From assembly GCF_044324875.1 (NCBI RefSeq), contig NZ_CP172185.1: DNA of 64,000 nt. One strand, written 5' to 3'. Shown here piece after piece: positions 31,901 through 34,900 of this stretch. This DNA is from Escherichia coli (GTDB lineage: Bacteria; Pseudomonadota; Gammaproteobacteria; Enterobacterales; Enterobacteriaceae). Position 1 is the stretch's first letter. Each line of letters opens with the position of its first letter. The position numbers are program-made.

Positions 31901-34900
31901 TTTGCCATCTGGATCCCGCAATTCCTTATCAGCATCCGCCTCTCACGAACGGTAGTAATGGCGTATGAAATCTCTCCGGAGGGCTGTATGTCCCAGAGTT
32001 ACGTTCAGACAGAGATGCCATCTAGGTACTGTCAGGCAGACGAAGAGTGGATTCAGCAGCAGTTACAGGGGCTACCACCGTCACTGAGACGGAAGGTCGC
32101 CCTGAAATATGCGGAGGTATACGAAATCACTTTTGACGCTGAGCCTGTTTCATTCCGCAAGGAGAACAGAGCAAGGCACGAAGCAAACACAAGGCTCCGC
32201 TTGTTTGTGAGAAATCAGGGCAGAGCTTTACAGGGGTATGCAACTCAGCCGCCCCTGGCAGGAACGCAATCGCGCTCCTGATTGGTACCGGGCTTAAAGG
32301 TGTCCGGTGGCTGATTGAAAATGGTAAAAATATTTAGACGTCTATATGTCTGGATGTATTTACCACCCCCTAAATGTTTATGGGGGAAAGGGGGCGGTGT
32401 TGATCTTTTAGCGCGAAGCGCTGGAACAGGCTTTTCCAAGAAGACGGGTACATAGGTTAGGTAGATCTCTGTAAAGGGGAAATACCAGAAGATGTGCGGA
32501 CGCCTAGACGTCCAGATGTAAATGTTCAGAGGTGATTTTATGGTTAACAGTTTTGATGGTGAAAAATGGCTTCCGGTTCCTGTTGCTCCGTATGGTGATG
32601 CTTACCTCGTTAGCTCGGCGGGACGCATCCGTGGGGTTAATCGAATTGCTGAATCGGAATTTTTTATTCGCCAAATTCGTGGCGTGTTCCTCAAGGGAAG
32701 AGTGCGCCGGGATGGATATAAAACCGTTAACCTGAGCTACAAACGTAATCGCCAAACTTTTGCCGTACACCGTCTGGTAGCGCTGGCTTTTTGCAGCAAC
32801 CCTTACAACCACCCTGAAGTGAACCATAAGGACGGCAACAAGCTGAATAACCATGCATCCAATCTGGAGTGGGTTAGCCATAGCGAAAACATTCAGCATT
32901 CTATTCACACCGGGCTGAATAATTCTCAGGGGGCGAACAACAAACAATTTAAGGGCCTGATTGTCGCCACAAATATTGCGACCAGGGAAGAGCAAACCTT
33001 TTGCGGGAAAAAGGCGCTAATTAGTGCCGGGTTTGATCACGGTAGTGTTTATGCTGTTATTGCTGGAAGAACAAAGTCTCATCGCGGTCACCATTTCAGG
33101 CGCCTCCCGCTGAACCATGGGGAGGCAGCACAATGCAGCTGACAATCACGCCGAATTTTGCACAGGAGCGAGCGCTAAACATGTTGCGCCGTGACTGGAA
33201 GGCAAACGACACCTTCATGGTTTACTCGCCAACAGGTAGCGGTAAAACGGGTCTGGCAGCCTTCATAGTTGCTGGTTTTGTCAGCCGTGGTATGCGCGTT
33301 CTGTTCTGTGTTCCGTACACCATCCTGATTGGTCAGACGGCTAATCGGTTCGTGCAGTATGGTTTACCTGGAGATGAAATCGGTTATATCTGGGCGGATC
33401 ACCCTAACTACGATCCGGACCGGAAAATTCAGATTGCCAGCGCTGACACGCTTATTCGTCGTGTTTTTCCTGAAAATATCGATCTGCTGATTATCGACGA
33501 AGCGCACCTGCGTAAAAAACGCATCCTGAAGGATATCGAACGTCTGCGCGGCAAAGGCGTAAAGGTGATTGGCCTGTCGGGTACTCCGTTTTCTCCGTTC
33601 CTGGGCAAATACTATGACCGACTGATTAAGCCGACCACCATCGGCGAGTTAATCCAGCGTGGCGATCTGAGTAAATACGAATTTTACGCGCCAACTAAGC
33701 CGGATCTGAAAGGTGTTAAAACCACATCTTCGCTTGAGTACGGCCGCGATTACAACGAAACACAGCTGGCTGAAATCATGTGCGGCTCTACGCTGGTGGG
33801 CGACATCGTACAGAACTGGCTGGAGAATGGTCGGGATCTACCTACCATCGCTTTCTGCGTCAACGTAGCTCATGCCAATTATCTGACAATCCAGTTTAAC
33901 CTGGCGGGTGTTAACGCTGAGGTAATGACCGCCGACACTCCGGTAGATGAGCGCCAGACCATCATTCACCGCTTTGAAACCGGTGCAACGAAAATCATCG
34001 TTAGTGTGGGCGTTCTGGTAGCCGGATTCGATAGTGACGTTCGTTGCATCATCTACGCCAGACCAACAAAAAGCGAAATTCGCTGGTTGCAGGCACTCGG
34101 GCGTGGACTTCGCACCGCACCGGGTAAAGAGTCCTGCCTTATCTTCGATCACAGCGGCACCGTGCACCGTCTGGGTTATCCGGATTCAATCGAGTACGAC
34201 GATCTTCCCGGTAAGTCTGACGGCATGGAGGAAAGCACGCGCCGCGCAGTTGAGGAACGGGCCGAAAAATTGCCACATGAATGCCCTCAATGCCACTACA
34301 TGAAGCCAGCTGGCGTCTATGTTTGCCCGAAATGTGGACACAAGCCGCTGCGAGGTGAAGACGTTGATACTGACACTAGCCGCAAACTTAATAAGCTGGG
34401 TAAAAATCAGCATCAGTCCACGAAGGCAGAGAAACAGGCCTGGTGGAGTCAGATCAAATTTTATCAGCGCCAGCGTGCCTCACTGGGGCGTCCAGTCAGT
34501 GATGGATGGTGCGCTCACACTTTCAGGGAGAAATTCGGTGAATGGCCTGATGGGTTGAGTAGTTTCCCGATGGAAATAAGCCCAGAGGTAAGTAACTACA
34601 TCAGACACAAGCTGATCCGGTTTGCTAAAGGTCGTGAACGGACACGGAGGATGACGAAAAACTCATCCGAAGTGCTTTCTCTGCCACTGGTTGTTGGTGG
34701 CCGGTATGTTCCACCGGAAGAAAGTGAGGCTTGGCACATTATGCAGGCAAAGCAACAATTCCAGAAAAATATAAACAGTCTGAGTCAGTAAGATGAAAAC
34801 AGCAGATGCAGCGAAAGGCCGTTGGCCTGAAATATTAGAGCACTTCGGTCTGCCGCCGATAACCGGAAAAAATCACTTTAAGGGTGAATGCCCGGTATGC

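Follow-up and report, generated by a model that had tools for sequence, protein, structure and literature searches.

Temperate phages such as CTXϕ, GIL01 and coliphage 186 use the host repressor LexA through sites carried in cis; these phage-borne operators feed a host physiological signal, DNA damage, into phage development. Repeats in a non-coding stretch beside replication genes are also found at iteron origins (lambda ori with O, SaPI ori with Rep and P4 ori/crr with alpha), where the iterons co-vary with the initiator and are typically 17-22 bp in length. The repressor MetJ binds tandem repeats of at least two met boxes with the consensus AGACGTCT (PMC4239095, PMC3413123); its operators are typically within about 75 nucleotides (nt) of a start codon and it is reported across the Enterobacterales (PMC3228920). 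In the Eru1 replication module of Shiga toxin (Stx) phages, defined by Llarena et al. in 2021 (PMC8044961), a superfamily 2 (SF2) DEAH helicase and a Toprim primase take the place of lambda O and P. This paper and its 2022 follow-up describe the genes only, with no mention of an origin, repeats, the upstream region or host-repressor sites. Here we analyze the region upstream of such a module in a 64,000-nt stretch of Escherichia coli contig NZ_CP172185.1 (assembly GCF_044324875.1), referred to below as the window. The 258-bp non-coding gap at 32282-32539, which precedes a NUMOD4-HNH endonuclease gene and the helicase-primase pair, contains two sets of repeats that, judged from sequence comparison, are very probably MetJ-type operator arrays.

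The left array consists of four tandem met boxes (AAATATTT, AGACGTCT, ATATGTCT and GGATGTAT; bp 32328..32359; 33.6 bits), one of which is the perfect consensus. The right array also has four (AGATGTGC, GGACGCCT, AGACGTCC and AGATGTAA; bp 32490..32521; 25.5 bits). The two are approximately 162 bp apart and bracket a conserved non-coding element. The window was scanned with the MetJ information matrix published by Augustus and Spicer (PMC3228920 Table 3) at their cut-offs of at least 3.15 bits per box and at least 12.58 bits per site, and exactly two sites were found, both in the gap. In 100 Markov simulations, the mean number of sites was 0.73, the top score was 17.4 and arrays of at least three boxes occurred at a mean of 0.02. 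When the scan was calibrated on 6.5 kb of E. coli K-12 sequence, only the metB/metJ (31.2 bits) and metF (24.9 bits) operators were recovered, and the two window arrays score like these genuine operators. Each array contains more than the minimum of two boxes in strict 8-bp register and exceeds the published score thresholds.

The initial annotation of this region had noted two copies of a tagacgtc(N)cagatgta-like motif and two short hairpins upstream of the HNH-helicase-primase operon, in a gap given as 240 bp, and had proposed that they were origin iterons or a regulator binding site. Both copies and both hairpins are present. Copy 1 (TAGACGTCTATATGTCTGGATGTA) is located at 32335-32358 and copy 2 (TAGACGTCCAGATGTA) at 32505-32520; in a gap-free register, copy 2 reads GACGCCTAGACGTCCAGATGTA (32499-32520) and is identical to 32337-32358 at 17 of 22 positions. 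The sequence TAGACGTC occurs three times in the 64-kb window, always inside the gap (0.86 expected). A degenerate 22-nt motif has just two occurrences, 32337-32358 and 32499-32520, and never appeared in 100 shuffles. The variable spacer of the original motif, however, gives way to tandem 8-bp units. Autocorrelation of both arrays in four variants is 0.36-0.52 at lag 8 and 0.32-0.53 at lag 16, with other lags mostly between 0.1 and 0.35; the diverged variants compared were L141 (strain LH50-c), L145 and L146 (IMG/VR), whose HNH is 86% identical to that of the window. In a non-circular test of this register, the single best box was used as an anchor and its neighbours were scored: the fraction that exceed the threshold for a box is 58-74% at +/-8 nt, as against 0% at +/-4 and +/-12 nt. 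Base preference at each half-box position of the neighbour boxes follows the published rank order. The right arrays of L141, L145 and L146 are rearranged in sequence and retain the same place and register (20.8-29.3 bits). A palindromic RGAC-N8-GTCY motif, considered as another description of the repeats, is not enriched (4 found, 2.2 expected) and is superseded by the 8-bp register.

The phage arrays thus resemble the E. coli metB/metJ and metF operators in their tandem 8-bp AGACGTCT units, four-box length, bit scores and base preferences, and also in that the right array is close to a start codon (19 nt from the array end to that of the HNH gene, within the typical MetJ range). They differ from these operators in four ways. 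First, they are part of a prophage and precede nuclease, helicase and primase genes rather than methionine genes. Second, there are two arrays some 160 bp apart bracketing a conserved element. Third, neither has a recognizable overlapping promoter. Fourth, they have no sequence homology to the host operators. When the gap was compared with 5,426 E. coli genomes, matches were found in prophages only and none showed homology to host met regions, so capture of a host operator was rejected as the source of the arrays.

Relatives were collected by searching public viral contigs with the central core of the element and with the helicase, which yielded 203 elements, about 135-147 of them unique. All share one order of parts: one or two hairpins with a TTAAAGGT loop, the left site, a G-tract (G5-6, N3, G5-6), a GCGAAGC-type hairpin (in some lineages), the core (CTTTTCCA-N15-16-GGTTARGTAGATC), a short hairpin with an A-run, the right site, an optional gene and the helicase gene. 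This comparison with related helicase-primase phages, the check suggested in the initial annotation, proved decisive. The position of the motifs is conserved, and their sequence is conserved out to Morganella and Proteus. MetJ arrays are found on both sides in 20 elements, including that of the window. Across 135 unique 3-kb contexts (approximately 405 kb), predicted MetJ sites are confined to two intervals, -150 to -100 and +25 to +75 relative to the core. In the Morganella and Proteus prophages, whose helicase genes have only 66-68% nucleotide identity and whose element is mostly diverged, there are exactly two MetJ sites each, in the same places.

In approximately 175 elements, the left site is instead a dyad of 18 bp that agrees with the TrpR operator GTACTAGTTAACTAGTAC at 14-16 of 18 positions; the right TrpR-like site in these elements is weaker (12-14 of 18). 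The reference sequence is the DNA of PDB entry 1TRO, which the K-12 trp operator matches at 17 of 18, and the chance of a match of at least 16 of 18 is 2e-8 per position. Taken together, the dyads of these sister phages, which resemble the TrpR operators of trp, aroH and trpR, agree with GTACTAGTTAACTAGTAC at 12-16 of 18, and their main peaks fall in the same two bins as the MetJ sites. Stx phage phi467, Fels-1 of Salmonella LT2, Klebsiella phage KPP5665-2 and most IMG/VR relatives are of this type. Four hybrids (L223, L214, L215 and L202) have a MetJ array on the left and a TrpR-like site (13 of 18) on the right, and L019 pairs a left MetJ array with a weaker right dyad (12 of 18). The window gap itself has no TrpR-like site, the best matches in the 64 kb being 12 of 18 and located elsewhere; TrpR is relevant to the window by analogy only.

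These comparisons bear on the identity of the binding protein. One alternative is that the repeats are iterons of a phage initiator, or sites for the HNH protein or some other phage protein, such as a ribbon-helix-helix protein with MetJ-like specificity. The repeats do adjoin the replication genes, the window cassette with both arrays also carries the HNH gene, and ribbon-helix-helix proteins generally bind short tandem repeats. The candidates fail one by one, however. The slot between the right site and the helicase gene may hold the HNH gene, a phrog_1347 gene or no gene, and site type is independent of its content: MetJ arrays occur with the HNH gene, with the phrog_1347 gene (L155, L220) and with no gene before the helicase (L172, L176, L182, L197, L224, Morganella and Proteus), while the commonest class lacks a slot gene and keeps its TrpR-type dyads. 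Neither slot product is therefore a suitable binder, and no phrog_1347 homologue was found by tblastn elsewhere in slot-less loci or in the window. Recognition sites of the HNH protein as a homing endonuclease were likewise rejected, given that the arrays also occur without its gene. Nor are these cI/Cro operators: the immunity operators have a different, TTCGAAA-type motif, and L023 has the immunity region of the window yet carries TrpR-type sites. The helicase and primase are not the specificity factor either, because L062-L066, with helicases 98-99% identical to that of the window, carry TrpR-type sites; with phi467 included, the helicase identity of such TrpR-type relatives spans 95-99%.

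The iteron part of the initial proposal, with the phage's own replication proteins as binders, fares no better. The units are 8 bp rather than direct repeats of about 17-22 bp beside an AT-rich region (the central element is G-rich), they match a host repressor, and they change type without a change in replication proteins: phi467 is 96.7% identical to the window in helicase, primase and the next gene at the nucleotide level but has TrpR-type sites. Among window open reading frames (ORFs) between 22 and 42 kb, compared with 57 TrpR-type loci, none is specific to MetJ-type loci except HNH, which is present in only about half of them, and frames that overlap HNH or lie in the gap. Base preferences also fit the MetJ matrix position by position. 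The comparative data have largely refuted a phage-encoded binder, and we regard this alternative as very improbable.

A search of 2.36 Mb of phage DNA revealed no gene for a homologue of MetJ or TrpR. The metJ gene is present in E. coli K-12, which belongs to the species that carries this prophage. Site type does not follow any phage protein, which makes host MetJ, with S-adenosylmethionine (SAM) as co-repressor, the most likely binder. The other part of the initial proposal, a regulator binding site, is supported, with a host protein as the regulator. We consider it likely that the arrays are bound by host MetJ with a physiological effect, and the simplest reading of the sites in the sister phages is that they would be bound by host TrpR.

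The element between the arrays comprises, in the window, a G-tract, a GCGAAGC hairpin and a CTTTTCCA-N16-GGTTAGGTAGATC core. The first of the two hairpins noted originally pairs CCCCC (32366-70) with GGGGG (32382-86) across N11, but is better described as the inverted repeat ACCACCCCCT (32362-71)/AGGGGGCGGT (32389-98) on the plus strand (32362..32398), which encloses both the CCCCC/GGGGG pairing and the G-tract GGGGGAAAGGGGG (32382-32394) and whose single mismatch is repaired in L145. Every class keeps the G5-N3-G5 tract, where the excess of G reaches 12.6 per 20 nt; its C-run partner is lineage-specific, such that the G-tract rather than the pairing is conserved everywhere. Hairpin 2 (AGCGC-GAA-GCGCT, 32410..32422, plus strand) contains GCGAAGC. 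As single-stranded DNA, the hairpin region has a fold energy no better than that of shuffles (z = -0.85), and support for hairpin 2 comes only from relatives, where AGTGC-GAA-GCACT represents a compensatory C:G to T:A change and CCGC-GGA-GCGG a third variant. The AGCGC-GAA-GCGCT form is common to about 40 of some 147 unique elements and absent from the commonest class; therefore, it is not essential to the element. The conserved core, GGAACAGGCTTTTCCAAGAAGACGGGTACATAGGTTAGGTAGATC (32423..32467, plus strand), ends in GATC, with a second GATC at 32402-32405. It is present in the 203 elements and travels with the helicase and primase across all classes, including TL-2011c, and its TAGATCTCTGTA portion persists in Morganella and Proteus. 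In comparison with phi467, only an 81-bp core of the gap aligns (89% identity) and the sequence directly on either side is unalignable. The gap is a mosaic in this comparison, and the flanking cII-position gene and helicase-primase-next-gene block are 97.9% and 96.7% identical, respectively.

It might be supposed that the palindromes act only as DNA cruciforms or RNA hairpins and resemble met boxes by coincidence. In favour of this, the gap in its entirety (window 32262-32540) folds, as RNA, at -100 kcal/mol, compared with -76 +/- 4.6 kcal/mol for shuffles (z = -5.2), largely because met boxes are palindromic; some relatives, termed class C, also carry dyads at the left and right positions, and these show compensatory changes. 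Against it, in several arrays, such as the right array of L145 (AGAAGTCC AGATATTT AGACGTCC AGACGTGA), the 8-bp units are direct repeats and self-complementarity is low, it is box sequence and register that are conserved rather than pairing, and the strength of the matches was never reached by chance in the simulations. We find coincidence scarcely credible as an explanation.

The class C relatives are Stx2a phages of the TL-2011c/O104:H4 type (L003 3890-4085; L005, L025, L041 and L045), in which the G-tract and core are kept. Their left site is TTAGTTGC-N19-GCAACTAA and their right site TAGTT-N23-AACTA. In L025, both arms of the left dyad are changed symmetrically (TTAATTGC/GCAATTAA) and other variants give G:U wobbles; these changes therefore suggest RNA or DNA hairpins rather than a protein-binding dyad. 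No host factor could be assigned to the class C dyads. GTTGCA resembles a PutA site, but in the left dyad alone.

A second kind of structure marks the left border of the control region. Just past the stop codon of the cII-position gene is a hairpin, ACCGGGC-UUAAAGGU-GUCCGGU (32287..32308, plus strand), whose TTAAAGGT loop is conserved among relatives while at least nine different stem sequences all still pair, with G:T wobbles on the plus strand only. A boxA-like sequence (CGCTCCTGA) overlaps the stop codon and is followed by this hairpin (window 32271-32308), and many relatives have two copies of the TTAAAGGT-loop hairpin. By its position, the hairpin with its boxA-like sequence looks like a nutR/boxB-type RNA site, although an N homologue is reported to be absent from Eru1 phages. 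The left array begins 20 nt past this hairpin and 47 nt past the stop codon. In the lineage of L172, L176, L182 and L197, the left boxes (AGGTGTCT GGATGTCT) extend over both the loop and the 3' arm of the hairpin with the TTAAAGGT loop, and therefore a DNA operator and an RNA hairpin share sequence.

No sigma-70 consensus promoter was found on the plus strand of the element in 136 unique versions, which led us to reject a promoter in the core (sigma-54 and sigma-E consensus sequences, judged by eye, do not fit). There are no conserved DnaA, IHF or Fis sites in the element and no predicted intrinsic terminators in the gap, and an Rfam search of 30500-33500 on both strands, at E-values up to 10, gave two chance-level matches only, both outside the gap. 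Given these results, the replication genes are probably transcribed from the early rightward promoter via the nut-like hairpin, in a manner that can be likened to lambda. On the minus strand, a promoter-like TTCACC-17-TAAAAT (window 32563..32535) is directed leftward from the HNH start; a transcript initiated there, near 32528, would immediately cross the right MetJ array, an arrangement reminiscent of oop. In the commonest class, another leftward candidate (TTGTGC-17-GATAAT) is found where the helicase gene starts. These sites are class-specific and were rejected.

The sequence data show that the arrays match met boxes, have no counterpart elsewhere in the window, occupy a fixed position and give way to TrpR-type sites in sister phages. 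On balance, we favour the explanation that the arrays are host MetJ operators gating the replication genes. How such gating would operate, and in which direction, can be proposed only tentatively, and the following model is the one that we hold most likely. When SAM is plentiful, MetJ dimers would bind both arrays cooperatively. Occupancy of the left array would obstruct RNA polymerase from the early rightward promoter as it enters the element, and occupancy of the right array would obstruct it short of the replication genes. Both replication-gene expression and transcription across the probable origin would thereby be tied to host methionine/SAM status, with sister phages exerting the same control via tryptophan.

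Five observations weigh against gating by MetJ. First, there is no plus-strand sigma-70 promoter at the arrays in the 136 unique elements, so that either a roadblock on upstream early transcripts or an unrecognized promoter is required. Second, the left array, 47 nt past a stop codon and 181 nt before the start codon (array end to ATG), is atypically placed for a met operator. Third, for lytic growth it seems counter-intuitive that an ample supply of SAM or tryptophan should lead to repression of the replication genes. Fourth, the two sites are between 147 and 190 bp apart, centre to centre, and keep no constant helical phase; a phased loop is therefore unlikely, and the variation speaks against a precise looped complex. 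Fifth, the class C relatives have neither type of site, with the dyads described above in their place.

Two further explanations would fit nearly as well as gating. Multicopy operator-bearing DNA is known to titrate repressors, and amplified phage DNA, with eight met boxes (or two TrpR operators) per copy, could act as a decoy that soaks up a limited supply of host repressor with no role in cis. Host genes for methionine (or tryptophan) biosynthesis and uptake would then be derepressed and would feed phage protein synthesis. The sites are close to consensus and equal or exceed chromosomal operators in strength, they have no associated promoter, and their types are freely mixed, including one of each; in addition, they adjoin the replication genes and so probably the origin, which by this inferred placement would be the earliest region to be amplified. 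A decoy would not, however, need sites that are always in the same two core-flanking positions (although these are perhaps the only free non-coding stretches), and there are only two arrays per genome, with none elsewhere in the 64-kb window. We consider titration unlikely.

Alternatively, the element may contain the origin, with MetJ or TrpR on each side shaping or insulating it so that unwinding is allowed or prevented, rather than controlling gene expression. The element is the largest conserved non-coding block and is directly upstream of the helicase and primase genes, to which the core is strictly linked in all classes, including TL-2011c. The bias towards G on one strand is extreme and could promote R-loop formation, the element also has GATC sites and a hairpin, and the published Eru papers define no origin. 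Against this, an AT-rich unwinding element of the usual kind is missing, as are sites for DnaA, IHF and Fis; no action of MetJ or TrpR at an origin is known; and the spacing between the two sites is variable. An accessory role at the origin is, in our estimation, still less probable than titration. Plasmid records that contain the module are phage genomes assembled as separate replicons and are uninformative on the origin.

The prophage that carries this locus is lambdoid, and copies 99.4-100% identical to it are found in five complete genomes; in strain ECCNB12-2, the integration site adjoins torZ-cmoAB. Strains ECCNB12-2 and TUM1886 have a region identical to that analyzed here. A cI-like repressor gene (30989-31648, minus strand) is followed by a cro-like gene and then by the cII-position gene (31958-32281; 107 aa, phrog_852; stop codon 32279-32281). 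Between the cI-like and cro-like genes (window 31650-31745) are four copies of the TTCGAAA-type motif (TGTCGAAA, TTTCGAAA, TTTCGCAA and GTTCGAAA), presumably the immunity operators. The first gene past the right array is that of the NUMOD4-HNH endonuclease (32540-33142, plus strand; Pfam NUMOD4 and HNH_3), with a Shine-Dalgarno sequence AGGTGA at 32530-32535. Pfam and PHROG matches identify the next two plus-strand genes as those of the SF2 DEAH helicase (33133-34791) and the Zn-ribbon/Toprim primase (34793-35761), and 3' of these are the genes for a 286-aa protein and a Q antiterminator. The helicase-primase pair (33133-35761) constitutes the Eru1-type replication module. It resembles the published Eru1 region (PMC8044961) in this substitution for lambda O and P and in having the same core upstream in TL-2011c, but the window has the HNH gene and the 286-aa third gene in place of the DUF1367 gene eru1C.

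The slot 5' of the helicase gene (window 32540-33142; L001 6553-6921; L003 4094-4471) has the appearance of a hot spot at which small nuclease-like genes insert. The alternative occupant, the phrog_1347 gene, which fills the slot in phi467 and TL-2011c, encodes a protein of 122-125 aa with a conserved D...ExD motif and no Pfam match, possibly with a PD-(D/E)xK-like fold as judged by eye. In relatives without a slot gene (L109 at about 3430-3505 and most class D loci), a leader of about 190 nt precedes the helicase gene. Within it are a hairpin, GGCTGG...CCAGCC, and an ORF of 19 codons (MKTTSQNYYLISTGAAQWS), the end of which overlaps the start of the helicase gene; in some variants of this ORF, Cys replaces the Trp encoded by the penultimate codon. 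The C-terminus of the window HNH protein (…GEAAQCS*) is fused to the end of a leader peptide known from relatives.

We found no description of MetJ or TrpR operators in phage replication regions in the searchable literature, including the MetJ-regulon survey and its supplements. In comparison with the LexA-using phages, the locus would sense amino-acid/SAM supply rather than DNA damage, its sites flank a replication-control element rather than a switch promoter, and its lineages swap host repressors. It is quite possible, if still somewhat doubtful, that a family of temperate enterobacterial phages, with Stx phage phi467, Salmonella Fels-1, Klebsiella phages and Morganella and Proteus prophages among its members, carries a modular nutrient sensor. 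In such a sensor, interchangeable operators for MetJ, for TrpR or for one of each would bracket a helicase-primase control element or origin, and host SAM and tryptophan would directly gate replication or the lysis-lysogeny decision. In the opposite direction, amplification of the phage could titrate the repressors and turn on methionine or tryptophan synthesis in the host.

For the origin or control region of Eru1-type modules, as yet unmapped, the element is the most probable site, and the locus illustrates that matrices for host transcription factors can decode "orphan" repeats of phage genomes. If host MetJ and TrpR do bind these sites, the phages would read host methionine/SAM and tryptophan supply through repressors that they do not encode, linking host metabolism directly to phage replication. 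The link would cover medically relevant prophages, among them Shiga toxin phage phi467 and the model Salmonella prophage Fels-1, and amino acids derived from the diet or microbiota could then influence phage induction and toxin gene dosage.

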